A DNA stretch of 64,000 nt. It comes from Dehalococcoidia bacterium (GTDB lineage: Bacteria; Chloroflexota; Dehalococcoidia; Lucifugimonadales; JAGWBF01). Below are positions 6,501 to 64,000 of the stretch, piece by piece. The stretch lies in contig CBDFGE010000001.1 of assembly GCA_965247055.1 (NCBI GenBank), positions 145,956 to 209,955 of the forward strand, written 5' to 3'. Each line of letters starts with the position of its first letter. Position 1 is the stretch's first letter. The translations under genes and the position numbers were made by a program. Under the pieces are notes generated by a model, which was given only the letters and a program-made list of their open reading frames with translations, searched no databases and was not told the DNA's origin.

Positions 6501-7610
6501 TCAGCAAAGGTCCCTCATGACCCAGCCCAGCGCCGGGATCACGGCATCGGTCTCGTGGGGCAACCCCACACTGGCCCGCAGGTAGTCCTTCATTCGAGGC
6601 CCGGACAGCTGACGGAAGAATATTCCCTGCTGGGCGAGGCCCTCGAAGACGGCACCCGCCTTCCCCTCGGGAAACTGGCAGAGGATGAAGTTCGCTCGGG
6701 AGGGCCAGGGAGTTACCCCGGGGATCTCCGCAAGCAGCGAGATCATTCGCTCCCGCTCAGCGACTATGGCGTTCACCCGTTCGATCAGGCCCTCTCGGTC
6801 CTCCAGGGACGCCAGGAGGGCTATTTCAGCCGCCAGGCTCACGTTGTAGGGCGGTTTCACGCTCATCATCACCCTGGCGACGTCCGGGTGCATCACTCCC
6901 AGCCCCATGCGCAGCCCGGCGAGCCCGGCCCATTTGCTGAAGGTGCGGAGGACTATGAGGTTGGGGTACTCCCTCACCAGAGGCAGCACCGTCTCGCTTG
7001 CGAACTCGTGGTAGGTCTCATCCACTACCACCAGTATGCCCATCTCCAGCAGTCGCCGCACCTGCCACTCAGGGGTGATGTTCCCGGTGGGATTATTGGG
7101 TGAGGCGAAAAGCATGGCCTTGGTATGGGAGTCCAGCGCCAGCTCCGTCGCTTCCGTGTCTATGGCAAAGGCCTCGTCCCGGGGCACCTCCACCACCTCT
7201 CCCCCGCAGATGTGCGCGGCGACAGCGTACATACCGAAGGTGGGAGTGGGGTCTATAATCTTCTCTCCGGGGGCCAGGAAGATACGCAGGGTCAGGTCTA
7301 TGATCTCGTCGCTGCCGTTTCCGGCGACGATGTGCTCAGGGCCGATGCCCAGGTACTCCGACAGGGCCCCCCGTAGCCGCCTCTGTTCCGGGTCAGGATA
7401 CAGGTTGTAGGACTTGAAGCCGGCAAGGGCCTCGGCCACCTTAGGGGAAGACCCGAAGGGGTTCTCGTTGCCGTTGAGCCTTATGACCTTCTCCGGGGGA
7501 ATCCCAGCCTTCTCCGCCAGGACCTCCGTGGGGTCCACGCCGTGGTACATGTCGAGGCGGCGAATGTGGGGCTGGATGAGGTCCAGCACATCACCTTCCG
7601 AAAGTTTCAT
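6501..7610 (-). CDS. hisC: histidinol-phosphate aminotransferase
   Basis: 369 aa class-II aminotransferase. LNGNENPFG, NPNNPTG-like SPNNPTGN, and FSKWAGLAGLRMG carrying the PLP lysine. The start overlaps the hisD stop. Confidence 0.93.
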   Translation of the reverse strand: MKLSEGDVLDLIQPHIRRLDMYHGVDPTEVLAEKAGIPPEKVIRLNGNENPFGSSPKVAEALAGFKSYNLYPDPEQRRLRGALSEYLGIGPEHIVAGNGSDEIIDLTLRIFLAPGEKIIDPTPTFGMYAVAAHICGGEVVEVPRDEAFAIDTEATELALDSHTKAMLFASPNNPTGNITPEWQVRRLLEMGILVVVDETYHEFASETVLPLVREYPNLIVLRTFSKWAGLAGLRMGLGVMHPDVARVMMSVKPPYNVSLAAEIALLASLEDREGLIERVNAIVAERERMISLLAEIPGVTPWPSRANFILCQFPEGKAGAVFEGLAQQGIFFRQLSGPRMKDYLRASVGLPHETDAVIPALGWVMRDLC

Positions 7611-8977
7611 ATCTGCTTAACCTCGTGGGGGGCTCCGCCGCCTGCCCGCCTCAGTCCGTCCAGCCGGACCTCCACGGCCCGGGCGTGTCCCGTGAGCCCC
7701 TCGGCTCTCGCGATCACGGCGGCCGCCTCACCCAACTCGCCATACTCCTCGGGCCTCAGCCCCACCACCGGCATAGTCCTCAGGAAATGGTGGACACTCA
7801 GGGCGGAGCTGAACCGGGCCGTGCCCCCGGTGGGCATTACGTGGCTGGGCCCGGCCACGTAATCTCCCATCACCTCGGGGGAGTAGGGGCCCAGGAACAG
7901 ACCACCGGCATGCTTAACCATGCCCGCCCAGCGCCACGGGTCCTGGACCATCATGCACAGGTGCTCGGGTGCGATGGAGTTCGCCAGCTCTATCGCCTCC
8001 TCGACGCTGCCCACCAGGACAACCTTGCCCTGCCTCTCCAGTGACACGCCGGCAAGGTCACCCCGCTCCAGCGAGGCCAGCTGTCTCGCCAGCTCTTCCT
8101 CCACCTCCTCCACCAGAGATGGGGAGGTGGTGACCAGAATGGCCGATGCCATGGGGTCGTGCTCGGCCTGGGCAAGCAGGTCGGCGGCACAGTAGGCGGC
8201 TTTGGCGGTCTCGTCCGCGATCACCACCGTCTCGGTGGGCCCGTACAGGCCATCGATGTCCACCTGGCCATAGACCAGCTTCTTTGCCAGGGTTACGAAC
8301 ACGTTGCCAGGCCCGCAGATCTTGTCCACCTTGGGCACGGTCTCAGTGCCGAAGGCCATCGCCGCAATGGCCTGCACCCCCCCGACCCGGAACACTCGGT
8401 CCACCCCGGCCAGGCGCGCCGCCGCGAGGACGGCAGGCGCCGGTAACTCCCCACCCCGGGGAGGAGACGCCAGGACCACCTCTCTGACCCCCGCGACCCT
8501 GGCGGGGACCGCCGTCATCAGCACCGTGGATGGGTAGGAGGCGCTGCCGCCCGGTGCGTAGATGCCCACCCGCTCCAGGGGTAACACCAGCTCGCCCAGC
8601 CCGGTCGAGAGATCCACCCAGCTCTGGCGCATCGTCTTCCTGTGATATTCCTCGATGCGCCTGGCCGCGAGCTCCAGGGCCTTCACCAGCTGCTCCGGCA
8701 CCTCCCGGCAGGCCTCGTCGATCTGCGCGGCTGAGACCTCCAGCTCCTCCAGCTCCACGCCATCCAGGAGACGGGCGTAATGCCTGACGGCACCGTCGCC
8801 CCTTCGTCTCACATCCTCGAGGATGCGCTCCACCGACTCGCCGGGCGACAGCCGCTCCCCGAACACCTCGACGGTCTTGTCCATCATCTCAGGGGGGATG
8901 GAACTCAGGTCCAGGACATCCGCGCGGGTAAGCGCTTTCCTGGCCTCCTCCAGACCCTTAATCAGCTTCAGGTGCAC
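7607..8977 (-). CDS. hisD: histidinol dehydrogenase
   Basis: 456 aa. GIYAPGGSASYPSTVLM, AQAEHDP and GDYVAGPSHVMPTGGTARF motifs. Confidence 0.95.
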   Translation of the reverse strand: MHLKLIKGLEEARKALTRADVLDLSSIPPEMMDKTVEVFGERLSPGESVERILEDVRRRGDGAVRHYARLLDGVELEELEVSAAQIDEACREVPEQLVKALELAARRIEEYHRKTMRQSWVDLSTGLGELVLPLERVGIYAPGGSASYPSTVLMTAVPARVAGVREVVLASPPRGGELPAPAVLAAARLAGVDRVFRVGGVQAIAAMAFGTETVPKVDKICGPGNVFVTLAKKLVYGQVDIDGLYGPTETVVIADETAKAAYCAADLLAQAEHDPMASAILVTTSPSLVEEVEEELARQLASLERGDLAGVSLERQGKVVLVGSVEEAIELANSIAPEHLCMMVQDPWRWAGMVKHAGGLFLGPYSPEVMGDYVAGPSHVMPTGGTARFSSALSVHHFLRTMPVVGLRPEEYGELGEAAAVIARAEGLTGHARAVEVRLDGLRRAGGGAPHEVKQI

Positions 8978-9719
8978 CCAGATACCCCTTTATCAACCGT
9001 GCAGATTCCTCTACGACCCTCTCCTGATACTCGGCGATCTTATGTCTAGGTATCTCGCCGTACACTCCTCCGAGGCTGTCCGGGACACAGCGGAGGAACT
9101 CATCGACTATCTCCGCGGCGCCGGAGTCATCACTGTACATCCGGCGCGCCATGAAGCGTAGCCGCTCCCACGTCAGGTCCCAGGTGTTGAATTTCGACAC
9201 CCACTCCCGCCACTCGGTAAGGGTCTCGGGGCTGATGAACCCCACCTCTATCCCCTGCTCCGAGCCCTCCAACGAGGCCCTTATCTGCTCAAAATCACCC
9301 AGCCACTCCCTGGCCGCCATGTCCATGTCCAGCTGCAGTGCCCTGTCCCATATATTCGCCCGCACCTGGTCGCCAGGGCGGTGCCCGTTGAAATATGGGC
9401 GGTATATCTCCACGATCCAGGTCTCGTCCGCAACCAGGTGGGTGAAATACCCGGAGAGGAAAGCCCTGGTAGCGTCGTCGATCCGTGACGAGTCGGCAAG
9501 GTGAGGATGGGCATTAAGCAGGCCCTCCACACCGGCGCCGACATGGTCTACCGCCAGCGGGGCGAAGTGGGTCTGGTCCCTCTTCCATTTGGTGATTATT
9601 CTAATGTCGGGCGACGTTGACCCAAGGAGGAAGGAGCCTAGATGCCCCTCGACCACGGGGTGGGCGAGGCGAGAGGAGGTCCGCCATGCCAGGCACAAAT
9701 GGGTTGGCAGGTTGGGCAC
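8958..9719 (-). CDS. zinc-dependent phospholipase C-like / metal-dependent hydrolase family protein, function unknown
   Basis: 253 aa. N-terminal PTHLCLA, then LLGSTSPD...THF and GYFTHLVADE His/Asp-rich motifs resemble the Zn_dep_PLPC-type fold. The GTG start is 1 nt after the hisG stop, and the gene overlaps the hisD start by 20 nt. Confidence 0.5.
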   Translation of the reverse strand: MPNLPTHLCLAWRTSSRLAHPVVEGHLGSFLLGSTSPDIRIITKWKRDQTHFAPLAVDHVGAGVEGLLNAHPHLADSSRIDDATRAFLSGYFTHLVADETWIVEIYRPYFNGHRPGDQVRANIWDRALQLDMDMAAREWLGDFEQIRASLEGSEQGIEVGFISPETLTEWREWVSKFNTWDLTWERLRFMARRMYSDDSGAAEIVDEFLRCVPDSLGGVYGEIPRHKIAEYQERVVEESARLIKGYLGAPEAD

Positions 9720-9720
9720 G

Positions 9721-10842
9721 TCAAACCTTCTCCAGGAATTCCAGCAGCCTCTGGTAGGCCTGGCAGCGGTCTTTGAAGAGGTAGCCCACTTGGGAGGAGG
9801 AGATGTCCAGACCTCCGGCTCGACGAAGGTGCTCCACGGCGTCCAGCAGCTTATCTTTGGCCACCACCAGACTCACTGCATACCAGTCGTCCTCGGAGTT
9901 GCCGTACACCCGGGAGATAGTGGGCCCCTGGAGCCCCGCCAGATCGGGTCTGGTGAGGAGGTTGGCGGCCACCATCTCGGGCGATGAGCCTCGCACGTTG
10001 GCGGTGAGGCGGTAGAACGACCCCGCCCGCAGATTGGCCTCCATCAGCTCCAGCATGGCCCGGGCCAGCTCCAGGCCCTGGGAAGAGTCTCGAAGCAGCC
10101 GGCGGTTGCCTATCAGGCAAGCCTGGGATACCAGGATGGTCCCGTCCTCCACCGTCTTGAGTCTGTTCTCCCGGAGGGTGACTCCGCTGGCGGAGAGATC
10201 GGCGATGACGTCGGCGTAGCCGGCCACGGGCGCTGCCTCCAGGGTGCCGCTAGCCTGCACTAGGGTGAAGTGGTGAATCCCCCTGCCATATAGGAACTCC
10301 CCCAGCAGCCGGGGGTACTTGGTAGCGATGCGCAGCTGCTTCCCCTCCTGCCGGAACTCAGCCGCCAGGTCTGCCAGGTCGTCCAGTGAGGACATGTCTA
10401 GCCACGAGTCTGGGATTGCCAGCACAAGCTCGCAATGGCCGAAGCCGAGGTCTTCGATGATGGGAACCACCGGGCTCCCCTCACGCCGGGACTCCAGGAA
10501 CCGGTCAAGTCCGGTAATCCCGAGCTCGGCGCTCCCCTCCTCTACCTTAGAGGTGACGTCGGCGGTGCGTTGAAACAGCACGGTAGCCCCTGGCAAAGTG
10601 GGGATACGGGCGGTGTAGCGGCGGCTGCTGGGCCGGTTCACCGTGATGCCACAGCGGCCCAAGAAGGCCAGCGAAGGCTCGTACAGGTCGCCATCGCTGG
10701 GCAGGACCAGCCGCAGATTCCCCTCCTTCTCTGCCGCCGTGCCCCCGGTCCGGGCTGCCCTGGGCTGCGGGCCCTCGAAGGACACGCCATTCCCGCTGAG
10801 CCCTCCCAAGCCGGCCGCGAATCTGGACGAAGGGTACGTCAT
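9721..10842 (-). CDS. hisG: ATP phosphoribosyltransferase, long form with C-terminal regulatory domain
   Basis: LRLVLPSDGDLYEPSLAFL start region. The C-terminal HisG_C-like segment contains LAGLQGPTISRV. The ~40 aa N-terminal extension may be an artefact: an internal aaggagggg sequence precedes LRLVLPS. Confidence 0.88.
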   Translation of the reverse strand: MTYPSSRFAAGLGGLSGNGVSFEGPQPRAARTGGTAAEKEGNLRLVLPSDGDLYEPSLAFLGRCGITVNRPSSRRYTARIPTLPGATVLFQRTADVTSKVEEGSAELGITGLDRFLESRREGSPVVPIIEDLGFGHCELVLAIPDSWLDMSSLDDLADLAAEFRQEGKQLRIATKYPRLLGEFLYGRGIHHFTLVQASGTLEAAPVAGYADVIADLSASGVTLRENRLKTVEDGTILVSQACLIGNRRLLRDSSQGLELARAMLELMEANLRAGSFYRLTANVRGSSPEMVAANLLTRPDLAGLQGPTISRVYGNSEDDWYAVSLVVAKDKLLDAVEHLRRAGGLDISSSQVGYLFKDRCQAYQRLLEFLEKV

Positions 10843-53374: not shown

Positions 53375-53451
53375 GGGCCCGTAGCTCAGATGGTTAGAGC
53401 GCGGTCCTGATAAGACCGAGGCCGATAGTTCGAGTCTATCCGGGCCCACCA
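53375..53451 (+). tRNA. tRNA-Ile (anticodon GAU), CCA encoded
   Basis: The cloverleaf was folded by hand. Acceptor GGGCCCG/CGGGCCC, D stem GCTC/GAGC, anticodon stem CGGTC/GACCG with loop CTGATAA, T stem GATAG/CTATC with loop TTCGAGT. Confidence 0.93.
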
Positions 53452-53562
53452 AACTGGACAAAATCAAGAACCTTTGTAATTAGGTTTAAGTTAGTCCTGT
53501 AGGTTGTTCGGATCTGGCTGAAGCAGACTAGAGGGATTGAATTCGGCGTCGAATGTGGCAGA

Positions 53563-55203
53563 ATGGGCAGGAGAGGGCACACATTGGATCAGGTAATCAG
53601 CATAATGTGGGTACAGAGAGCTTTACACATTCCAGTGATCCTAACGCTGGTGTTCGCCGTGATGGCCTGCAGTCCCGAAGAGCCTGAATTGGTGGCCACA
53701 GCGGCTCCAACCGATACTCCGACTACCATGCCCGTTCCAACAGTAGCCCCCGAACCTACTGCTACTGTACGAGTGCCAACCCCTGAACCCACAGCAACAC
53801 CTCAACGCCAAGCATTTGATGTCGGCGATACCGTGCGCCTTGGCAGCCTCCACATCACTGTGAACGGCGTTCGAGCCTCTCTCGGAGATAACTTCTGGGC
53901 GCCGGAGGAGGGAAACTACTTCATTTATGTAGATGTCACGTTTAGGAATGAAGGCAATCAACCTGAAGTGGTCAGTACCTTAATTCAAATGGAGATGCGT
54001 GATGCCGAAGGACGGTTGTACAATACCGATTTGTTCGCCACTGCCAGTAACAGTTCGTCGCTGGACGGCGAGATTGCTCCCGGAGGCAATCTTCGTGGGG
54101 AGGTAGGTTACCAACTACCGGCAAGTGAAGTCGAGCTAACCTGGCGGTTCTCCGGCGATTTATTCCGGCTGGGACAGGCCGTCTTCTCCTTAGGTACCGT
54201 AGCCGTCCCCGTGCCACCACAAGGGTCCACCCTGGACGACCCTCTCCCAGCAGGTGAAGTTCTGCTAGGCTCTGATGGTACAGAGGTACGTGTTGTGGGG
54301 ATAGCCGAGGATGCCTGGCGGCAGATAGCTGAGGAGAACAGCTTCAACGATCCACCGGGACAGGGGATGCGCTTCTACATAGTCCGCCTAGAGATTGCTA
54401 ATCCGTCGGGCGCGTCCGGTTCCGTCAAGGTGTCAGGGTCCGACTTCAGCCTCATCGGCGACAACCGCGTTGTCTACGGCGGACTCCTGAATAGCATCAG
54501 TTGTGGCCTTATCCCAGACGCACTTGGGGGCAAATACGGAGCAGGGTCCGAGATCTTTGCCGGAGGTCGGGTAGAAGGTAACATCTGCTTAGAGATTCCC
54601 GAGGACGAGGGCGGCTTCATCCTAATACATGAACCCGGATATGGAGCAGATTCGCGCCGTTTCCTCAGACTCCCCTACGGTGAAGCCAAAGAGCCGACAC
54701 CGACCCCGGAAGCGACAGCCGCCCCTACGACAACACCAACGCCGACGGCCATCCCAAAACCCGAATCCACGCCTACGCCGGCTTCGACGGCTACCCCAAC
54801 GCCCGAACCCACGCCCGTGGCCATCGGGACGACGGTAGAAGCGGGAGGAAGCTCGTACACTCTGAACGAGGTAAAGGACCCTGCTCCCGCAGGCATATTC
54901 GGTGTTAATGAAGGCAAGAGACTGATAGCCCTGGACATCACGCAGGTGGGAATCAGCGGCGGCGGTGATTCCTACAATCCATTCTACTTTGCAATCCAAG
55001 ACACGGATGGATACGTGTACACGCCAGGTTTTTCGGACGCCGATGTGGGACCGCCGTTCGGCTCGGGCAAGCTTTCGGCCGACCAGATAGTACGGGGATG
55101 GGTGGTCTTTGAGTTGCCCGAATCAGCGAGGTTGGTGTCGGTCTTGGTTAACCCTGAAGTGTTCGGTGCGAGGATAACCATCGCTGATCTGGCACAAGAA
55201 TAG
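53563..55203 (+). CDS. secreted/lipoprotein-like protein with repeated DUF4352-like domains and Thr/Pro-rich linkers
   Basis: N-terminal hydrophobic segment with Cys (VFAVMACS). TPTP linkers. DUF4352-like beta-sandwich motifs (ITVNGV...YVDVTFRNEG; GWVVFELPE). Confidence 0.68.
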   Translation: MGRRGHTLDQVISIMWVQRALHIPVILTLVFAVMACSPEEPELVATAAPTDTPTTMPVPTVAPEPTATVRVPTPEPTATPQRQAFDVGDTVRLGSLHITVNGVRASLGDNFWAPEEGNYFIYVDVTFRNEGNQPEVVSTLIQMEMRDAEGRLYNTDLFATASNSSSLDGEIAPGGNLRGEVGYQLPASEVELTWRFSGDLFRLGQAVFSLGTVAVPVPPQGSTLDDPLPAGEVLLGSDGTEVRVVGIAEDAWRQIAEENSFNDPPGQGMRFYIVRLEIANPSGASGSVKVSGSDFSLIGDNRVVYGGLLNSISCGLIPDALGGKYGAGSEIFAGGRVEGNICLEIPEDEGGFILIHEPGYGADSRRFLRLPYGEAKEPTPTPEATAAPTTTPTPTAIPKPESTPTPASTATPTPEPTPVAIGTTVEAGGSSYTLNEVKDPAPAGIFGVNEGKRLIALDITQVGISGGGDSYNPFYFAIQDTDGYVYTPGFSDADVGPPFGSGKLSADQIVRGWVVFELPESARLVSVLVNPEVFGARITIADLAQE

Positions 55204-55214
55204 AGGATGCAAAT

Positions 55215-55550
55215 GTGAGAGTTGCTGCGCTGATTATAGGGATAATCGGGTCTGCTGCGGGATTTGTAGCTGCCGTGATTGCCCTGTTCATTGGGGGAGT
55301 GGGAGTAGCTCTCGAAGCTGAGGAAGCAAGCAAGATAACCAGCTTGGCTTTCGGAGCCATAGGTGCCTCAATCGTCGGGCTGGTTGGCGGAGCCTTGTCT
55401 ATCGCTAAACCACGATTCGCTGCGGTCTTGATGGTCCTGTCAGCGGTCGTTGGGGTCATTAGCATATCCGCCTTCTATGCACTGGGAGCGGCGCTGCTAG
55501 TTATTGGAGCCTTATTGGCATTCCTAGGACGAAGCCGACCTGGGCAGTAG
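55215..55550 (+). CDS. small integral membrane protein (DUF4064-like, 3-4 TM helices)
   Basis: 111 aa, almost entirely Gly/Ala/Ile/Val-rich helices. GTG start behind gagga. Confidence 0.5.
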   Translation: MRVAALIIGIIGSAAGFVAAVIALFIGGVGVALEAEEASKITSLAFGAIGASIVGLVGGALSIAKPRFAAVLMVLSAVVGVISISAFYALGAALLVIGALLAFLGRSRPGQ

Positions 55551-55749
55551 GAGCTCTCCTCGACCCACAGGCCCCGGGAGACGTCCGCGCAGAACTCCAG
55601 GCCGTCGGGCGACAGTTGGGTCTGCCGTATGGGCTCGCCGCCTCCGGTGGAGAGCCAGGCCATGCTGGACATGCCGGCACCACCGCTGTTTACGCCCGAG
55701 TGGCATAGGGGCTCTGGACCGTCTATGCGTCAGAGGGGTACCTCTATGG

Positions 55750-57195
55750 GATGGAGAGCCGGAGGCTCTTGGAGTCTGACCCGGGGTCGCCTGACTAACC
55801 CCTCCTACCCTATAGAGACCTTCCAGCGAAAAGTTCGCAGTAGAGCCTGATGCTCCTATAGATGTCAAGGAGTGCTGTGGGATAGGGCTGGTTCCGTAGG
55901 ACGGAGAAGACCTCGCGAGCGACATAGCGTTTGAGGCAGCGGATCACCTCAGCCTTGCTCATTCCCTCGGTGGTGCGACGACGCATGTATGCCTGGGTCC
56001 GCTCATCATGACGAAGTCTGACGACAACAATGCGATGGAGTGCCGCGTTGGCCTGGCGGTGGCCGCCTCGGTTGAGCCGATGCCTGTTGGTCTTGCCGGA
56101 GGAAGCAGGGATGGGATTGACACCGCACAGGGAGGCGAAGGCAGCCTCGGAGTGGAGGCGGTCAGGGTTACTCCCGGCAGCAATGAGGAGGGTCGCCGCC
56201 GTGTCTGGTCCTATGCCGAAGCCATCCACCAGGGCTGGGGCTGCCGTCCGTGTGAGTCGTTGGATCTCGGCCTCCAGGTCCTTTATCTCATTACCGAGTT
56301 GACGGTAGCGACGGGCAAGGGAGCGAAGAGCATACTTGGCCGCCGCGGTGGGACCCTCCATACGACCAGGCCGGAAGCTCTTGGACCGGGTGACAAGGGC
56401 AGCAGTGGTGAGGCCAGTGAGGTGCTCACGAAGCCGGGCCGGGGCCGTGACAACCAGGGCCTTCATCTGGTTGATTGCCTGGGTGCGAGCCTTGACGGCC
56501 GAGTCCTTGGTGCTCTTGAACATACGGATCATTTCGACTTCACCCTCACCTGACTTGGGAGTGGCATCGGCTACTCCGGCAAGCACGGCACGCGCTGCCA
56601 TCTCCGCATCAGTGGGATCGCTCTTCCCCTTCCGATAGCGGGTTGACCGGTCGGGCCGGTTGACCTCCACTACGGTATGGCCCCTACTGGTCAGGAATCG
56701 GGCGACTCCGGCACCGTAGGAACCGGTGCCTTCAATCCCGAAGGCATGAATCTCTCCCAGGCTCCGGGACCACCGTTCGAGCTCCTCATACCCATGGGTG
56801 GTCGCCACTGTGTGAAGCTCCCCAAGGCGGACCCCCTGACGGTCAATGGCCACCGCCACATGCTCATCCTGGTGGGTGTCGACTCCGACGACCAGCTCAA
56901 CATCACGACTACCTTTATGACCGACGACTCCTGTCATTTCTACCTCCCGGAGGATTGTGCGCCGGCCAGGTGAGCGGACAAGACTGCGATGGGGCGTGGG
57001 GCCAGGCTCCTATAAGGTCACTGCTCGCCTTGCCGAGGGCACTTCTGGCGCCACCTCGAATCGAGTCGACAGATCAGGCTGAAGGCATGACGCCAGTCTC
57101 AGAAAGGGTCAGGCCCGAGCCGAGGTGGCCCGGGATTCATCATCGCAGTCTCAGAAGTCCCCTCCACTTGATTTGCACTATGCGAGACAGTCTGG
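55750..57195 (-). mobile_element. IS110-family element (the boundaries are approximate and not determined)
   Basis: Contains an IS110-type DEDD recombinase gene plus about 250 nt of structured upstream non-coding DNA. This family lacks classical IRs, so the ends cannot be fixed from one copy. Confidence 0.35.
55810..56937 (-). CDS. IS110-family transposase/recombinase (DEDD + Transposase_20 domains)
   Basis: VVGVDTHQDEHVAVAID, FGIEGTGSYG, GIGPDTAATLL and SGKTNRHRLNRGGHRQAN are canonical IS110 motifs. Confidence 0.9.
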   Translation of the reverse strand: MTGVVGHKGSRDVELVVGVDTHQDEHVAVAIDRQGVRLGELHTVATTHGYEELERWSRSLGEIHAFGIEGTGSYGAGVARFLTSRGHTVVEVNRPDRSTRYRKGKSDPTDAEMAARAVLAGVADATPKSGEGEVEMIRMFKSTKDSAVKARTQAINQMKALVVTAPARLREHLTGLTTAALVTRSKSFRPGRMEGPTAAAKYALRSLARRYRQLGNEIKDLEAEIQRLTRTAAPALVDGFGIGPDTAATLLIAAGSNPDRLHSEAAFASLCGVNPIPASSGKTNRHRLNRGGHRQANAALHRIVVVRLRHDERTQAYMRRRTTEGMSKAEVIRCLKRYVAREVFSVLRNQPYPTALLDIYRSIRLYCELFAGRSL

Positions 57196-57215
57196 ATTCC
57201 GGCGTACGCCGGAAT
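57196..57215. repeat. perfect 20-bp palindrome ATTCCGGCGTACGCCGGAAT (hairpin repeat ending GAATGAC)
   Basis: Read directly. It shares the GAATGAC terminus with the element at 38834..38927. Confidence 0.85.
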
Positions 57216-57564
57216 GACGTGATTGAGATATGGCGTCAGGTCCGTCATCTCGTCGAAAGACGGAATACAGAACATTGAGACTCTGGAAATGTCAGCTTTA
57301 TGAGACAAGCTCAGTACGGTACGCTTAGGCCCACCATTTCCGGCCGTGGTGTACTGTAGACAGTAACCCTTGCTGGGGCCACCAAGGCAAAGGCATCCGG
57401 GGTCAGGTAACCCAGAGCACCGTGGGGCAGTTTCCACTCCGCTGACAGGAATCCCAATAGATCTGTCTGCTACACTGTCAGTTGGCCAAGTGTTCCGAAA
57501 ATCTCCTGTGAGATTTCATACAATTGTTGGAATCCATTATGCCTATCGGCCCCCGAAGAGAGAC

Positions 57565-57873
57565 ATGACAGAGGATCAGTACCGGGAAATGTTTGAGACC
57601 ATGGGGATAGAGGCCAGGGAACTCCGCCATGTACTACGCTATGGGGGCCTGCCTAGGCGAGTGTACTTCAATCGCAATAAGGATGTCGGCATCTACTTCT
57701 CAGCCCATGGGGATGATGAGGCGTGGTATCCGAGCAACCTGTGGGAGAAGATAGACCCCTACCGAGTCCAAAAGGCGGACCACAAGCGGCTGAATGTTGT
57801 TCCTAGGCCTCGAATGGCAACCGGGGCGTTTCGGAACCTCGTTTTGAATTGGGAAAAGCACGAAGGACAATAA
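57565..57873 (+). CDS. hypothetical protein
   Basis: 102-aa ORF from the internal ATG. Lower-GC island context, no motif recognised. Confidence 0.4.
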   Translation: MTEDQYREMFETMGIEARELRHVLRYGGLPRRVYFNRNKDVGIYFSAHGDDEAWYPSNLWEKIDPYRVQKADHKRLNVVPRPRMATGAFRNLVLNWEKHEGQ

Positions 57874-57924
57874 ACCCCCATCTACCACTCATACGTGCGT
57901 TAAGGGGAACATCGCCGAAATTAT

Positions 57925-58113
57925 ATGCCGGAACTAATACCATGTAGAGTGTGTAAGAAGGAGATGGCGTCATCCGCCAAGCAGTGTCCGCATTGTGGAG
58001 ACCCTAATCCCAATCACAAGGAGCCTCTCGACCATTGGGGTTGTTTAGGAGCTGTTGTAGTAGTAGTGGTGTCTATCATCATACTGTTATTCTTAGGGAA
58101 CCCTTTTGGATAA
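57925..58113 (+). CDS. small zinc-ribbon protein with a C-terminal TM helix
   Basis: CRVC...CPHC followed by GAVVVVVVSIIILLFLG. Confidence 0.5.
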   Translation: MPELIPCRVCKKEMASSAKQCPHCGDPNPNHKEPLDHWGCLGAVVVVVVSIIILLFLGNPFG

Positions 58114-58169
58114 AAAAGCTTTGGTTCCCTATTAGGTATGTGGACAGTGTCATCGCCACGTGACTGAAG

Positions 58170-58982
58170 GTGGCATCGCGAGTCTGGAGAGGATCAATCT
58201 TGTTGAAAGAGCGGGCAAGCCTTGACGAAGCGATAGCGAAGGCTTGGTGCGCCTACGACAACGCGGCGGAGTTGTCGGTGCGCGTTAAGCCCGCCGCGCC
58301 GATTCTGTTCTTTGGTGACCTCGGTGCGTACAGGGTATCCACACTGCGTGTACTGACTGTGGGGTTGAATCCCTCGCTACAGGAATTCCCGGCGGATAGG
58401 CCGTTCTCACGCTTTCCGTTAGACGAGGGTACCGCGGGCCGTGGCCGCGATCACTACCTTTATGCCCTATCGTCCTACTTCCGCACCAACCCTTATCGCG
58501 CCTGGTTCAGAGCATTCGAGCCCTTACTTAACGGCGCTGGAGCCAGCTACTACGAAGGCTTCACCTCGACAGCGCTCCATACCGACATCTGCTCACCCGT
58601 CGCCACCGATCCGACTTGGAGCAAACTCGGCGATGTCGACCGGTCCACACTTGAAGCCGATGGCGGTCCGCTTTGGCACATGCTGCTGAAGATACTGGAG
58701 CCCCAGATCGTGGTCCTGTCCGTCGCAAAGCGCCACCTTGAGCGCATAGCGTTTGAGCCGCAAGGCAACGAGTGGACTGCCATCCACACTTTCGATCGGA
58801 CTGGGGGCGGCGCACCTCGCTCGCGGCCGTACGAGGTCATGGCACGCTGGTACGATGTCGACGGCAAGCCGTCGCTGTTCATCTTCGGTCCAGCCGCTCA
58901 GACCCCGTTTGGCCTAATCTCCGATCCCCAGAAGGGCAAGGTAGGGGCCATCCTGCGGGAGGTATGTCGGAATGGACGATAG
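58170..58982 (+). CDS. hypothetical protein, possibly uracil-DNA-glycosylase-superfamily-like fold
   Basis: ILFFGD...RVLTVGLNPS loosely resembles the GINPG-type motif of MUG/TDG-type UDGs. The likely start is TTG 58200, after ggagagga. The functional call is weak. Confidence 0.45.
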   Translation: MASRVWRGSILLKERASLDEAIAKAWCAYDNAAELSVRVKPAAPILFFGDLGAYRVSTLRVLTVGLNPSLQEFPADRPFSRFPLDEGTAGRGRDHYLYALSSYFRTNPYRAWFRAFEPLLNGAGASYYEGFTSTALHTDICSPVATDPTWSKLGDVDRSTLEADGGPLWHMLLKILEPQIVVLSVAKRHLERIAFEPQGNEWTAIHTFDRTGGGAPRSRPYEVMARWYDVDGKPSLFIFGPAAQTPFGLISDPQKGKVGAILREVCRNGR

Positions 58983-59844
58983 ACGATGTTTCGTTCAGTT
59001 CCCGCACCCCGGGCGCGAACATGAACCCGACCGCGACGGCGGAAAGACATGGAACAAAAGCAATCGTAGCCATAGGCGAAAATTCATGCGGTTTCGTGGC
59101 GAGTGGATCGAACGGGACGGCGGCAAGCGCACTGGGGACCTGTACGCGTGGGGTGAGTGGGAACCGGAATCAGAGCTCATCCGAGAACTGCATCAGCCGG
59201 TCGGGGACTCGCAGTATCCCCGATACCTGTGGCGCCCGTACTATATGCCGAAGAACGATTACCAAGGACTGCACAACACCGACCCGTTCATCTTCGGCGA
59301 ACGCTTTTTGTATTCGAATTGCGGTCAGGGGAGCAAGCCGGGCTTGACGCGTCTGGGCGACGGTTCCATAATCGCCTTCGGGAGCGGCAAGGAAATCATG
59401 GGAGAGCGGCGGTGGATGCTTGATACCGTGCTCGTGGTCAAGGACTCAGTCGAATACTGCCCTCCCGAGGCGTCCACGGCACTGGATGAATGGGCACCGG
59501 AGGACGCATTCTGGGTTGCTACCGGAGGACTCCTGACCGACAGCGGCCGACTATACCGGGGAGCAACACCCGACGACCCGGTCGACGGGATGTTTAGCTT
59601 CTTCCCCGCAATTCCGGCGGGCAGTGATGGGGGCTTCTCACGGCCGCTCATCGACCTTCCGAGCGACTACTTTAACGCGCGGAATTGGCAGGCCCCAAAG
59701 GGGCTTTGGCGCGACCGCACCGCCGAGGAACTGCACGGTCTCTGGTACTCCCTGGTATCGCAAGTCCGTGCTAAGGGCCTCGTTCTAGGCACATACGCCG
59801 AACCGCCGGAGTGCCGGGCGCGAACGGCCACCGTAATGGTTTAG
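58972..59844 (+). CDS. hypothetical protein (conserved-looking, unknown function)
   Basis: 290-aa ORF overlapping the upstream gene by 11 nt. Starts MDDRRCFVQFPHPGREHEP and contains HNTDPFIFG and YSNCGQG segments. No family recognised with confidence. Confidence 0.55.
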   Translation: MDDRRCFVQFPHPGREHEPDRDGGKTWNKSNRSHRRKFMRFRGEWIERDGGKRTGDLYAWGEWEPESELIRELHQPVGDSQYPRYLWRPYYMPKNDYQGLHNTDPFIFGERFLYSNCGQGSKPGLTRLGDGSIIAFGSGKEIMGERRWMLDTVLVVKDSVEYCPPEASTALDEWAPEDAFWVATGGLLTDSGRLYRGATPDDPVDGMFSFFPAIPAGSDGGFSRPLIDLPSDYFNARNWQAPKGLWRDRTAEELHGLWYSLVSQVRAKGLVLGTYAEPPECRARTATVMV

Positions 59845-60045
59845 ATACGTAACGAAGTTGTCACCAACCCGAGCCTCTGCGAGAGGTTCACGAAGCGGTT
59901 GTCGCGCACCTTCGAAAGGCTGCCCATCCGGTAATTCGACCCTGCGCCTGCCCCATTTGAAGCCAGTGAGCGCCTGCCACCCTCCCGCACCGACCCTGAC
60001 ATGTGAAGGTTGCCGCCGTCGCCTCTCCTTCATTACGCTCAACAC

Positions 60046-61758
60046 ATGGCCCTGTCAGACCGACAGTTACTTGACTCCCTCAGCAGGATGCCCTTCATCG
60101 ACTCGGCGGAGCTGGCGCTCGTTCTCGGCGAGCCGCACGCCACAGTCCACCGCGCCCTGACCAGCCTGCTGGCCGACGGCATCGCCGGGAGGGTCAGCCA
60201 CGGCACCGTGCACCTGCCTTCGAGCCAGCGATACCACCTGACGGCCAACGGCATCGGCGAAGCGGCCGGGATTCTCGACTTCAAGACGCCCTCGGACTTC
60301 GTGCGGGCCTACCCCGTTTCCAGGGAGTGGCTGGCGCTGCTCATCCGCCGCATGGACGCGGTGGCCTCCGTCTATCGTCTCGCTGCCGCGCTCTCCCCAG
60401 GCATCGGCTCCCACCGGTCACACGTGGAGTTCCACCGCAGGGGCCGCTTCGACGCCACCATCACCCTCCACGACGGGCGCAGCTTCGGCGTGGTCCGCCA
60501 GGGTCTGGCACTGAGGCGTCGTTCCCTCTACGACCGCCTGCGGGCCGTAGCGGAGTATGACTACACGCGCCGCCCCGACACCGTTCTAATCCTTGTGCCC
60601 AGCGTCTGGGAGGAGAGACTGACGGGGAGGTTCTGCGAGCGCAACTATCTCAGGGATTCCTACATCGCCGTGGAGTCCAGGGAGGTTCTCGAAAGACGGG
60701 ACCGGCGCGTCTGGCAGCGAACCACGGGGCTGTTCGGGAGCACGTACCACACTCTCGATTTTGTGAGTTCACAGGGCGGCACCGGCGGAGCGCTTCATAC
60801 GGAGTCGCCGGAGCGGAAGCGGGCCTTGATACCCAATCCTGAGCGGATGGTGCAGGCTGCGCCGACCTTCGGGGTCAGCCCTTCGGAGAAGCGGATTCTC
60901 GACATGGTGACGGACCACCCGATGATGCCCCGTGACCACCTTGCGTGCTGGCTTGGTGTTTCGGAAGGGCGGATCAGCCAGATGATGCACAGCCTCGTCG
61001 ATACATGGGGCCTGATCGAGCGCCGGGGAAAACGCGGAGACACTCGCTACACGTTGTCCGCTGAAGGCATTCGCTACGTCACCCACAGGGACCGCGCCCA
61101 GCTTTCCACGACGCAGGGTATATGGAGCACGGCCCTCACCACCGACAAACAGGGCCGCAGGCGTCACGTGGGCCACCGCATCGAGACGTGGGCGCGTCAG
61201 ACGAAGCACGCAGACGGCATCACGTGGTTCCTCTCGAAGCTTCAGTCTGAGGCCAGGGCCGACCCTGACAGCGAGCTGCTGTGGTCGGTTCCAACCGCGA
61301 GATCCGACCGGGCCTACAACTGGGGTCAGTCGGCCATCGCCCCAGACGCCGTGGGGAAGATGGTCGCAGAGGGCCTTGAGATACCGTTCTACCTGGAGTA
61401 CGAGCTTCGCACCCGTCACCCCGAAGGAGTCATTGCCCGCCTGAGTCCCTACACGCGCTACTACTGGTCCACCGAGCCGGGCGAAGACCAGCCCCCGTTC
61501 CCCACCACGCTGTTCGTCGTCGACACCGAGGAGGTCGAGGACACCTACGTCCGCACCGCCGCCCTGAGGAGCCGGATGTCGCTGCCCATCCTCGTGTCGT
61601 GCATCCCCATGCTGTCCACCGCAGGAATACTCGGAAAGTCATGGCGTCCACTCTGGGAACCGGACTCACCGAGACTGCCTCTGTCCCGGCTGAGCGCCTA
61701 CCAGTGGGACAGTCTCTACCACCGGATGCGTCAGCGTCCTGTAGGGGGGAATAGGTAG
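60046..61758 (+). CDS. two-module winged-helix / replication-relaxation-like protein
   Basis: Two wHTH-like segments: LALVLGEPHATVHRALTSLLADG and LACWLGVSEGRISQMMHSLVDTWGLIER. The second is followed by APDAVG...FYLEYELRT, reminiscent of the Replic_Relax family. Confidence 0.55.
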   Translation: MALSDRQLLDSLSRMPFIDSAELALVLGEPHATVHRALTSLLADGIAGRVSHGTVHLPSSQRYHLTANGIGEAAGILDFKTPSDFVRAYPVSREWLALLIRRMDAVASVYRLAAALSPGIGSHRSHVEFHRRGRFDATITLHDGRSFGVVRQGLALRRRSLYDRLRAVAEYDYTRRPDTVLILVPSVWEERLTGRFCERNYLRDSYIAVESREVLERRDRRVWQRTTGLFGSTYHTLDFVSSQGGTGGALHTESPERKRALIPNPERMVQAAPTFGVSPSEKRILDMVTDHPMMPRDHLACWLGVSEGRISQMMHSLVDTWGLIERRGKRGDTRYTLSAEGIRYVTHRDRAQLSTTQGIWSTALTTDKQGRRRHVGHRIETWARQTKHADGITWFLSKLQSEARADPDSELLWSVPTARSDRAYNWGQSAIAPDAVGKMVAEGLEIPFYLEYELRTRHPEGVIARLSPYTRYYWSTEPGEDQPPFPTTLFVVDTEEVEDTYVRTAALRSRMSLPILVSCIPMLSTAGILGKSWRPLWEPDSPRLPLSRLSAYQWDSLYHRMRQRPVGGNR

Positions 61759-62312
61759 GGCCGATGCGTCCCTACCTCCCCGATATGCTGAATGGGGGTT
61801 GCAAAACGGTACATCCTGGCCTGTCGGCAAGGTCTTGAGGGGGCGCAATGCGCCCCATTTGCCCCTGATTCAGCTACGAAGTGGGCTGCCGGACCCTCTG
61901 ACCGGTCAGCGCCTGACAATACAAATGAGTGGGAAGCCATGCTAAACTACGATGCCTCTTCGACGACGACTTGTTTGCACTCTTGCAGCCGTTGACATGT
62001 CAGCATGTAGCGAGGAAACAGCTACGGATGGGCCTGTCCGGGGGAGCCGGAGGGTTGATGCGGACAGGATTTGGAGTGTTGGCGACGATGGCGGCCCAGT
62101 TTGGCCCATCGGTTTTGGCGCGAAACGATGTCGGGGTGCGTGACATGATTTTGGGGAATGGGTAGGAGCGGACATCCTGGGCCAGCCAGCTAACGCTTTC
62201 TGCCACATTCGGGGTGTATTGACCGAAATCTGTTAGCAGTATCTGTAAAGGGCTGGTTCCACCGAAAAATGGATGAAATTGCAAAAGCGGCCACCCCATG
62301 TAGAAAACGGAA

Positions 62313-62675
62313 ATGACTCCTGGGAAGCCAAAGAGCAACGGCGGGCCAGCATCGCGGGCCGACGACAGTCAGCCCGACCTCAAGTGGGTTGTGGAGTGGC
62401 TCGTTGAGCGGGAGGGACAGCGCCGGACGGCGGCCCTTCTGGGAGTGAACCGGAAGACAGTGGCGCTGTCCCTGCGCCGGGAGCGACTGACGGGCAGGAT
62501 GACCCTGGCCGTGCAGCGACTCATGGCCAACCTGGACGACCCCGGATGGGAGAGAACGACGCCACTGGACCGTAGCTGCCGATGCCCCATCGCGCAATCC
62601 AAAGCCCATGTTCCAATCACACCCGCGAACGCCACTGCCATTTTGTCCACTTTCGTAGCTGCGACTGTCCAGTAG
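62313..62675 (+). CDS. hypothetical protein with a possible HTH
   Basis: 120-aa ORF. RTAALLGVNRKTVALSLRR looks HTH-like. Coding status is uncertain. Confidence 0.3.
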   Translation: MTPGKPKSNGGPASRADDSQPDLKWVVEWLVEREGQRRTAALLGVNRKTVALSLRRERLTGRMTLAVQRLMANLDDPGWERTTPLDRSCRCPIAQSKAHVPITPANATAILSTFVAATVQ

Positions 62676-62977
62676 GGGTGGAACGAGTACCGGAATCAAA
62701 TTGCTCGCTCCGATTTAGCAGGATGCCCCATTCACCCCGATTTCAGATACGGAATCGCCCGAACTGCGACTTGGTGTCCCGTGCGATCTCCTGTACACGG
62801 GTATGACACCGCCAGCGACCCCTGGCATCTCACGCCTTCTGAGGGGGGGCTGTGCGTGTGAGCCCTACCCGGTCCGTTGCCGTTGTCCAGGCGCTTGCGC
62901 TGGAGTCACTAACTCACTACAATGTATCTGGACATCTACCCTCCGGCTAGGGCAAGCTGAGACGAAGGAGGCACGAC

Positions 62978-63382
62978 ATGGCCGTAGACCAGAAGGACAA
63001 GTACCGAGAAATGGTGATCCGAGGCAAGTACCAGAGACTGTACACGTACCTGAGCAGTCTTCAGGTGCAGGAGTGGAGGACCTCCTTTAGGGAGATGGAG
63101 ACGGTCATCGGATTCGTACTGCCTCCGTCCGCACGGCTGCACCGGCCCTGGTGGGGAAATCAGAGAGGCGGCAATGGCCACAGCCACGCCCTTGCCTGGA
63201 GCGTCGCCGGCTGGGAGACGGCGGAGGTCGATATGGATGGCGAGATGCTGCTGTTCCGGCGAACGCACCCGAAGCCCATACCCAGGCTCTCTCTCGACGA
63301 GGCGTGGCCCGTCCACCCCACCGCGGTGTGGCCGGAAGGTCTGAGCCTCAGACGTGAGGACCTCTACGAGGAGAGGGTTTAG
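62978..63382 (+). CDS. hypothetical protein, likely partner (antitoxin-position) of the downstream PIN gene
   Basis: KYQRLYTYLSSL...SFREMETVIGFVLPPSARLHRPWWGN...AWSVAGWE is a motif pattern I recall from small proteins in mobile or TA contexts. Ends 7 nt before the PIN start. Confidence 0.5.
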   Translation: MAVDQKDKYREMVIRGKYQRLYTYLSSLQVQEWRTSFREMETVIGFVLPPSARLHRPWWGNQRGGNGHSHALAWSVAGWETAEVDMDGEMLLFRRTHPKPIPRLSLDEAWPVHPTAVWPEGLSLRREDLYEERV

Positions 63383-63389
63383 TCCCGCC

Positions 63390-63812
63390 ATGTTCATAGA
63401 CACCAACGTGCTGGTGAAGTCCCGTGTCCCCAGCGCGCCTGACCACGACGCGGCCAGGGCCAGCTTGGAACGTGCTTTTCGAGACCCTGAACCGCTAAGG
63501 ATCAGCCGTCAGGTGATACGAGAGTACCTGGCCGTCGTCACTCGACCGCAGACCTGGCCAGTGGCCATCACCCGTGAGGATGCCCTGGATGACGTGAGCA
63601 GGCTGATAGGCAGCTTCGAGATACTCGAGGACGGTCCCGTGGTGACCGAATCGCTCGTGGGGCTGTGTCGAGAGATTCCCGCGGGGGGACGGCAGATTCA
63701 CGACGCCAACATCGTCGCAACCATGCTGGCGCATGGGGAGCGCAGGCTATTGACGTTCAACGCCGCAGACTTCCGCCGTTACGGTGACCGCATAGAGCTG
63801 GTGGACGGGTAG
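63390..63812 (+). CDS. vapC: PIN-domain ribonuclease (VapC-like toxin)
   Basis: MFIDTNVLV (first acidic residue), REYLAV, and HDANIVATML (the late Asp) fit the PIN pattern. 140 aa. Confidence 0.78.
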   Translation: MFIDTNVLVKSRVPSAPDHDAARASLERAFRDPEPLRISRQVIREYLAVVTRPQTWPVAITREDALDDVSRLIGSFEILEDGPVVTESLVGLCREIPAGGRQIHDANIVATMLAHGERRLLTFNAADFRRYGDRIELVDG

Positions 63813-63848
63813 CAGGTTGGGTTGGAAGCAATCACTGAGGAGGACAGC

Positions 63849-64000
63849 ATGAAGAAGGACCTACAGCCGCTCACACCGGCGGCACTCTACGCCAGGGTCT
63901 CCAGCGAGCGGCAGGACGTGGACCTGTCCGTGTCCGCCCAGCTCAGGGCGCTCAAGGACTACGCCAAGGCCAACGGCTACTCCGTAGCCCGCGAGTACGT
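63849..64000 (+). CDS. serine recombinase (resolvase/invertase catalytic domain), N-terminal part; continues beyond the window
   Basis: ALYARVSSERQDVDLSVSAQLRALKDYAKANGYSV contains the catalytic-Ser motif (R-V-S-S-x-x-Q). RBS gaggagga upstream. Confidence 0.85.
   Translation, partial: MKKDLQPLTPAALYARVSSERQDVDLSVSAQLRALKDYAKANGYSVAREY

Follow-up and report, generated by a model that had tools for sequence, protein, structure and literature searches.

A coupled gene pair on a Dehalococcoidia integrative island as a probable divergent two-gene anti-phage module of the Brig3-BapA family

Introduction

What function can be assigned to two overlapping genes of no named family that are carried as cargo on an integrative island? 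The question is raised by a stretch of 64,000 nucleotides (nt) from contig CBDFGE010000001.1 of a Dehalococcoidia bacterium, here referred to as the window, in which a pair of open reading frames (ORFs), ORF-A and ORF-B, occupies positions 58170-59844. The host is a metagenome-assembled genome (MAG) of 2.69 Mb in 6 contigs. An earlier note, made from the sequence of the window alone, had proposed that ORF-A resembles uracil-DNA glycosylases (UDGs) and that the pair is a possible defence module. Here the pair is assigned, with a probability of about 0.8, to the Brig3-BapA family, whose members are anti-phage modules of two genes, and is taken to be integrative-island cargo; both the probable homology to Brig3-BapA and the existence of fusions between the two genes support the proposal of a defence module.

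Brig3-BapA was described from a cosmid of soil environmental DNA (Mejia-Pitta et al., 10.64898/2026.02.25.707755 = PMC13160076; GenBank PX942695). Brig3 is a UDG-superfamily glycosylase that excises 5-hydroxymethylcytosine (5hmC); its fold comprises nine helices and six strands, residues N50, E55, W100 and D127 are essential by mutagenesis, and a wedge residue, N225, lies in the long loop between beta-6 and alpha-9. BapA is an ASCH-like double beta-barrel hydrolase that removes glucose from glucosyl-5hmC. Its residue D101 is essential, barrel 1 has been likened to that of ZmASCH (5GUQ), and a flexible loop is found at 186-196. The two genes, ORF1 and ORF2, overlap, and ORF2 is introduced as being "of unknown structure and function" (10.64898/2026.02.25.707755). 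Two further anti-phage glycosylases bear on the comparison. Brig1 (Hossain et al., Nature 2024, PMC11078745) is a UDG-fold enzyme with alpha-glucosyl-5hmC as its substrate and is called a Brig3 homolog by the preprint (10.64898/2026.02.25.707755), and Brig2 (Getz et al., bioRxiv 10.1101/2025.10.29.685425) targets modified thymidines.

Fold and predicted active-site residues of ORF-A

The predicted structure of ORF-A can be placed confidently in the UDG superfamily. Its AlphaFold2 (AF2) model, with a mean predicted local distance difference test score (pLDDT) of 85 and a predicted template modelling score (pTM) of 0.85, consists of nine helices and six strands. When the model is compared with the PDB by Foldseek, the top ~34 matches all belong to the UDG superfamily at probabilities of 0.99-1.0, and they include UdgX, family 4 UDG, BdiUNG and SMUG1; TM-scores are modest (0.3-0.55) and identities range from 10 to 18%. 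The guess of a UDG-like fold in the earlier note was thus right, since the top matches of the model are without exception members of this superfamily. The motifs quoted in that note are all located in the two proteins, namely ILFFGD (45-50), LTVGLNPS (62-69) and FGPAAQTPFG (239-248) in ORF-A, and MDDRRCFVQFPHPGREHEP, HNTDPFIFG and YSNCGQG in ORF-B. The likeness to MUG/TDG-type enzymes that had been read into LTVGLNPS stands insofar as GLNPS is motif A, but it does not extend to the classical MUG/TDG family (PF03167), which gives no match. Similarly, FGPAAQTPFG, taken for the place of motif B, does appear to be a functionally relevant loop that holds the wedge residue, but the region carries no canonical His/Pro-Ser signature.

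The published residue numbers of Brig3 can be mapped onto an hmmalign alignment of 146 ORF-A family members. Here Brig3 F31, N50-P51-S52 (the GLNPS of motif A), E55, Y97, W100-F101, H125 and D127 correspond to F48, N67-P68-S69, E72, Y109, W112-F113, H137 and D139 of ORF-A, all of which are invariant columns. Brig3 S139-R140 corresponds to S151-K152, where the modal residue at 152 is R; A174 to A186, in a nearly invariant column; R197 to R210 (R in 106/146); and A224-N225-x3-G229 to A243-Q244-x3-G248 (Q in 128/146). Counted over the family, the columns of the four residues that are essential in Brig3 are invariant in 146 of 146 members, and the catalytic and recognition columns taken together with those of the aromatic cage (F31, Y97, F101 and H125) are invariant in 145-146. 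The distances between these positions are retained as well, in that the Brig3 spacings W-D 27, D-R 13, R-A 34, A-R 23, wedge-G 4 and G-N/D 4 are the modal spacings of the ORF-A family. K152, R210 and Q244 are located in the same loops as Brig3 R140, R197 and N225, and at the wedge position both the loop and the A/G context are kept around a residue that is Q instead of N. Scored against the Brig3 residue pattern, ORF-A reaches 12 of 17, compared with 9 for the next best of the 3,591 ORFs of at least 200 amino acids (aa) in its own genome and with a maximum of 10 in 2,000 shuffles.

Related loci from soil bins come closest to the published numbering. In one of them (L078) the ORF-A homolog, of 249 aa, carries F31, N50, E55, Y97, W100, H125 and D127 in absolute Brig3 numbering. 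In a second (L092) the ORF-A homolog matches 12 of 13 Brig3 spacing positions, and the adjoining ORF-B homolog has the Asp of its NTDP motif at exactly position 101, the number of the essential Asp of BapA.

Two other placements of ORF-A were tried and rejected. Membership of the classical UDG families 1-6, including MUG/TDG (PF03167), finds no Pfam match at E <= 0.1, and the motifs differ, with GLNPS in place of the GINPG of MUG and a motif B region, AAQTPFG, that is devoid of the His/Pro-Ser signature. Membership of the Brig1 family yields an hhalign probability of 0.2 over 8 columns and a BLASTP E of 0.5, where only GLNPS/GLNPG matches; the Brig1 query was machine-read from the supplement of the paper and may contain small errors.

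Fold and putative catalytic residue of ORF-B

The AF2 model of ORF-B (pLDDT 71, pTM 0.79) is mostly beta, and the weak Foldseek matches that recur are ZmASCH (5GUQ/5Y6B, probability 0.2-0.33) and the PUA-like domain of ATP sulfurylase. Three features of the family fit what is published for BapA. An invariant Asp, D104 of ORF-B, is found in an LHNTDPF motif, in a column that holds D in 231 of 232 members. The sole variable insert of the family falls between D190 and S191, matching the flexible loop of BapA at 186-196. The BapA spacing of 151 residues from the catalytic Asp to Q252 is found in 11 family members; D102 and Q252 are present in P0181, also of this family. That ORF-B matches nothing nameable, as had been stated earlier, holds for the libraries searched, in which no match was obtained, and is superseded by the probable correspondence to a named protein, BapA.

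Membership of the Pfam ASCH family was considered for ORF-B and rejected, with no match at E <= 0.1. Some family members are larger proteins, in which a BapA-like domain is prolonged at its C- or N-terminal side by a further 150-440 aa without any match in Pfam (P0289, P0337, P0308 and P0326).

Library searches and family size

Searches of Pfam (at E <= 0.1), NCBIfam, PADLOC and PHROGs returned zero matches for ORF-A or ORF-B, and sequence and profile searches of the PDB with both proteins returned noise only. Relatives are nevertheless plentiful, with 1,013 clusters at 90% identity for ORF-A and 977 for ORF-B, all of them unnamed, and an exhaustive profile search recovers 1,679 representatives of the ORF-B family at the 50% identity level. 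Among 38 aligned relatives of ORF-A, 50 columns are invariant, and among 37 of ORF-B, 48 are. A homolog search seeded with a Brig3-numbered soil protein gave only entries labelled "hypothetical protein" and none named Brig3. Among phage records no tblastn match was found, and among plasmids there was one weak match, from Synechocystis, in an unremarkable context.

Gene junction, linkage and fusions

From its sequence, the ORF-A/ORF-B pair is a conserved cassette that is predicted to be translationally coupled. The overlap of 11 nt that had been noted earlier is borne out by the ORF coordinates (Table 1), and the co-translation that had been drawn from it agrees with what is seen at related loci and with an internal Shine-Dalgarno sequence: in the 44 related loci that encode both genes the overlap is exactly 11 nt in 37 and 8 nt in 5, and a GGAGG-like sequence is present at the ORF-B junction in the window and in all 13 related loci displayed. 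Such an arrangement points to classic translational coupling, because the overlap geometry is kept and GGAGG lies ~9 nt before the ORF-B start, inside ORF-A. With respect to the upstream gene, the true start of ORF-A is probably the TTG at 58200, which would give a protein of 260 aa, since GGAGAGGA lies just 5' of this codon and the same length of 260 aa is seen in the nearest homolog (P0001, 98% identical). A promoter and terminator scan of the locus gave nothing informative.

Linkage was surveyed in a scan of GTDB species genomes that yielded 80 loci encoding an ORF-B relative. An ORF-A relative is located directly upstream of it in ~45 of these, so the two families do co-occur elsewhere, a check that had been named in the earlier note. 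The pairwise divergences of ORF-A and ORF-B homologs are correlated (r = 0.79 over 43 intact loci, with non-independent pairs). When all ORFs lying up to 5 kb from the ORF-B homolog were clustered across the 80 loci, only shadow ORFs and no third conserved gene came up.

The two domains also occur in single chains. In four proteins (P0314, P0318, P0328 and P0390) an ORF-A domain is followed by an ORF-B domain; in P0297 an ORF-B domain is followed by a divergent ORF-A-like domain (GINPSSREF...HLDL); and in P0349 and P0380 the divergent ORF-A-like domain comes first. The order is likewise swapped between separate genes at one locus (L082), where the gene for the divergent glycosylase, at 8830-9663, is located downstream of the ORF-B homolog. 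Fusions of this divergent glycosylase subfamily (GINPSSREF...PYSWF...CHLDL) sometimes include a middle domain of ~200 aa of an unrecognised kind. Fusions of ORF-A to ORF-B and the conserved junction independently support the putative two-enzyme model.

The same arrangement might be expected of an addiction module of the toxin-antitoxin kind, in which ORF-B would neutralise a toxic glycosylase, or of an anti-restriction module, in which the pair would protect the DNA of the element on entry. Small, overlapping, co-translated genes on a mobile island fit such a role, and a neighbouring DUF7662-PIN pair is itself a toxin-antitoxin module. A toxin-antitoxin pair is nevertheless a poor fit, because both genes occur alone in many genomes and because they are fused into one chain in others. 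Furthermore, cultures that over-express Brig3 or Brig3-BapA grow robustly (10.64898/2026.02.25.707755), and there is therefore no sign that Brig3 is toxic. An addiction or anti-restriction role is considered extremely unlikely.

Incomplete copies were encountered in addition to the intact ones. An intact ORF-A homolog is followed by a frameshifted ORF-B homolog in L093, C-terminal ORF-B fragments persist in relatives of the host (L011 and L012), and split genes are seen for ORF-B in L014 and for ORF-A in L023. Both genes are split in L044, with ~1.5 kb between the two ORF-A pieces, possibly by an insertion.

Free-standing ORF-B homologs

ORF-B homologs without the glycosylase gene show no recurrent coupled partner, and two contexts stand out as single examples. 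The first is P0306 (441 aa), the only protein found in which an N-terminal TIR_2 domain (E = 2e-25) is fused to a BapA-like domain; on its domain composition, it putatively connects the ORF-B family with modules for immune signalling or NADase activity in a way that does not depend on a glycosylase. In the second, at L097, a solo BapA-like gene (9001-9864) is located 274 bp downstream of a GmrSD-family gene (6886-8727) on the same strand, an arrangement that is also registered as L098 and L047 and that comes from one genome only.

The frequency with which ORF-B occurs alone, together with the single TIR fusion and the GmrSD neighbour, suggests that the role of the accessory enzyme is wider than the preprint proposes. 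It is put forward tentatively, and as less likely than not, that BapA-like proteins are widespread free-standing strippers of phage-DNA hypermodifications, which would expose the DNA to whatever effector the cell carries. If so, the effectors would include glycosylases of the Brig3 kind, from two subfamilies or more, along with GmrSD-type nucleases and TIR modules, and the abundance of the ORF-B family in sponge and coral-holobiont symbionts from many phyla would suggest that phages with hypermodification of the hmC type are common there.

Weighing the assignment to Brig3-BapA

Several points weigh against the assignment of the pair to Brig3-BapA. The case for homology to Brig3 and BapA is built on the residue numbers given in the preprint and not on aligned sequences, and the fold evidence for ORF-B is weak, with no significant Foldseek match and a best ASCH probability of 0.33. 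PADLOC recognises neither gene of the pair, and no known defence system is adjacent. Even the Brig3-numbered soil members (L078 and L092) are distant, being 45-49% identical to ORF-A and 38-42% identical to ORF-B. Relative to Brig3, the segment of ORF-A from motif A to the cage is 5 residues shorter, the segment before the wedge loop is 6-7 residues longer, and the wedge residue is Q and not N. Brig1, a Brig3 homolog according to the preprint, has no significant alignment to the ORF-A family; the family is therefore regarded as Brig3-like and not Brig1-like. Finally, linkage is not obligate: ORF-B homologs stand without ORF-A in 35 of the 80 loci (~44%), in three of five genomes checked for a partner of their solo ORF-B copy, ORF-A homologs are absent from the entire genome, and ORF-A homologs are found alone in L005-L007.

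With no more than 38-49% identity to the soil members that follow Brig3 numbering, the pair may act on a different substrate. The pair could accordingly have the same architecture and another chemistry, with ORF-A excising some other hypermodified pyrimidine, such as 5-hydroxymethyluracil (5hmU), arabinosyl- or otherwise glycosylated hydroxymethylcytosine (hmC), or the aminoalkyl-deoxyuridine (aminoalkyl-dU) type known for Brig2, and with ORF-B removing a different decoration or reading the modified base. The Q wedge and the two indels are in keeping with this, as are the varied specificities of the Brig enzymes (alpha-glucosyl-5hmC for Brig1, modified thymines for Brig2, 5hmC for Brig3) and the uncultured marine or holobiont hosts, whose phages are not known. 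What argues for the 5hmC chemistry of Brig3-BapA is that E72, the equivalent of E55, which reads the hydroxymethyl group in Brig3, is invariant together with the entire aromatic cage, and that the catalytic Asp of ORF-B is invariant as well. A change of chemistry is accordingly held to be rather unlikely.

Proposed mechanism

The mechanism proposed for the Brig3-BapA reading builds on the fold of ORF-A, the conservation of the named residues, the coupling, the fusions and the sporadic, mobile distribution; substrates and defence phenotype are inferred along with the homology to Brig3 and BapA. ORF-B, co-translated from the same mRNA by coupling, would use D104 to strip hypermodified 5hmC of its sugar, which is glucose in the system characterised so far, and would in this way turn protected phage DNA into a substrate for ORF-A. 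The latter, acting as a monofunctional glycosylase, would flip a pyrimidine of the 5-hydroxymethyl type, which is most likely 5hmC, into the aromatic cage of F48, Y109, W112, F113 and H137; E72 would read the hydroxymethyl group, N67 and D139 would cleave the glycosidic bond, and the loop residue Q244 would occupy the space vacated in the helix. Replication of the phage DNA would then be blocked by the abasic sites so produced.

The island and its distribution

That the pair is cargo of a mobile island, as had been proposed from the window alone, is upheld by its position in a stretch of lower guanine-plus-cytosine (GC) content that adjoins a tRNA-Ile gene and includes an IS110 transposase and serine recombinases (Table 1). 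GC content is 0.54-0.61 in the island compared with ~0.65 elsewhere, and the drop starts right after the tRNA gene. The island also encodes a DUF4352 protein, and at its far end, just before the contig stops, there are two large serine recombinases in convergent orientation. The two ORFs upstream of the pair do not accompany it at related loci and are probably island cargo of no relation to it. The Replic_Relax neighbour has weak PADLOC matches of the winged helix-turn-helix (wHTH) type only.

Table 1. Features of the gene pair and of the surrounding island in the window
Feature	Position	Strand	Basis or remark
tRNA-Ile(GAT), the only tRNA gene of the window	53375-53451		
Lower-GC island with the pair as cargo	53452-64000, plus ~4.4 kb beyond the window to the contig end		
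IS110 transposase	55810-56937	-	
167-aa ORF of no recognised family	57370-57873		upstream of the pair
62-aa zinc-ribbon protein	57925-58113		upstream of the pair; weak PHROG matches
ORF-A, putative Brig3-like UDG-superfamily DNA glycosylase	58170..58982	+	ORF call, 270 aa, GTG start
Probable ribosome-binding site GGAGAGGA, 6 nt 5' of TTG 58200	58186..58193	+	sequence read
Shine-Dalgarno GGGAGG for ORF-B, within the 3' end of ORF-A, 9 nt before ATG	58957..58962	+	junction sequence
ORF-B, putative BapA-like accessory enzyme	58972..59844	+	ORF call, 290 aa, ATG start
11-nt overlap ATGGACGATAG of ORF-B start and ORF-A stop, predicted translational-coupling junction	58972..58982	+	ORF coordinates
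Replic_Relax/MarR protein	60010-61758		
DUF7662-PIN toxin pair	62978-63812		

Another Dehalococcoidia MAG (L013, CBDFGS010000011.1) contains the same island with an ORF-B homolog that is 100% identical. For the Replic_Relax gene, however, identity drops to ~83% and tblastn gives two separate pieces, so that the island may be mosaic or the assemblies may differ. Closer to home the ORF-B family is rare, being found in 2 of 60 relatives of the host, one of them with a fragment only, and in 1 of 400 further genomes that sample the phylum evenly. Copies at 55-60% identity are nonetheless scattered across many phyla, which indicates horizontal spread, and the islands of related copies harbour integrases, serine recombinases, IS110 elements, methyltransferases and toxin-antitoxin genes.

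Many carriers are MAGs with names that suggest sponge or coral holobionts (RHO, COS, APA, CAR, SB066x, Ca. Poriferisocius and Ca. Aldehydirespirator). For the Brig3-numbered members, the names of the source bins are in the style of soil or desert samples (MOJ, KAP, MGR and MFD). Habitat is here read from MAG names and from two papers that mention Ca. Poriferisocius and Ca. Aldehydirespirator.

The distribution bears directly on a further possibility, that the pair serves housekeeping or element-encoded repair or demodification, with ORF-A removing bases damaged by deamination or oxidation, such as uracil (U) or hydroxymethyluracil (hmU), from the cell's own DNA and ORF-B being an unrelated or auxiliary nucleic-acid binder. 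Enzymes of the UDG superfamily are classically repair enzymes, and Brig1 and Brig3 keep a residual uracil activity; moreover, one solo ORF-A homolog (L005) is located near a DNA ligase and a UvrD helicase, and several solo ORF-B homologs are found among ordinary metabolic genes. Against a repair role stand the sporadic occurrence in so few relatives of the host and genomes of the phylum, the spread across phyla on islands with integrases, the existence of decayed copies and the absence of a match to the classical UDG Pfam family, while the TIR fusion and the GmrSD neighbour point to immunity. Repair is therefore judged very unlikely.

Implications

As a Brig3-BapA pair, the locus is a divergent new member of a system known since February 2026. 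The mechanism has thus already been described, and the gain lies in annotation and distribution and not in a new principle. A putative function is hereby assigned to two large families of hypothetical proteins that have no Pfam, NCBIfam or PADLOC model. The reach of Brig3-BapA is extended from a single soil cosmid to the Chloroflexota, Acidobacteriota, Gemmatimonadota, Binatota, Nitrospirota, Proteobacteria, Actinomycetota and other phyla. Version 1 of the preprint includes no homolog survey (10.64898/2026.02.25.707755). What is added to it here is how large both families are and how widely they extend among phyla, together with the conservation of the junction, the occurrence of fusions, a second glycosylase subfamily that partners the ORF-B family, and the many solo BapA-like genes.

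Comparison with known systems

Brig3-BapA is the system that the pair resembles most fully. In both, two genes overlap and a UDG-superfamily glycosylase comes first; the second is an ASCH-like beta-barrel protein in Brig3-BapA and a beta-rich, possibly ASCH-like one here. The essential residues and the aromatic cage of Brig3 are conserved in ORF-A, six of its spacings are found in the ORF-A family, and the ORF-B family fits BapA in its catalytic Asp, the position of the flexible loop and the D-to-Q spacing. The differences are that the clade of the window has a Q wedge in place of N225 and two indels of 5-7 residues, that the host is a Dehalococcoidia MAG of marine or holobiont type and not from soil, and that the genes are carried on a tRNA-Ile integrative island, whereas Brig3-BapA is located beside CBASS and Ssp genes.

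Among the single-gene glycosylases, Brig1 shares motif A (GLNPG, where ORF-A has GLNPS), a pocket Trp and an acidic residue at the end of beta-2, but it acts alone and on alpha-glucosyl-5hmC. Brig2 is alike by description alone, being a UDG-like glycosylase with a role in defence that mobile elements disseminate and that is associated with AT-rich regions; it differs in being a single gene with a modified thymidine target. UdgX, family 4 UDG and SMUG1 (PDB 6IO9, 4ZBY and 5H93) have the same alpha/beta UDG fold with motif A after beta-1; they are uracil repair enzymes, however, and lack the additional helix at the N-terminus and the additional beta-hairpin of ORF-A.

For ORF-B, the nearest structural comparison is with ZmASCH (5GUQ/5Y6B), a small nucleic-acid-binding beta-barrel that is among its weak Foldseek matches. 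ORF-B is twice the size, probably with two barrels, and the Foldseek probability is only 0.2-0.33. Type IV restriction systems such as GmrSD and McrBC are comparable in their target, in that they act on phage DNA that contains hmC or glucosyl-hmC, and a GmrSD gene is located directly upstream of one solo ORF-B homolog. These systems are backbone-cutting nucleases of unrelated folds, in contrast to the base-excising and sugar-removing activities proposed for ORF-A and ORF-B.

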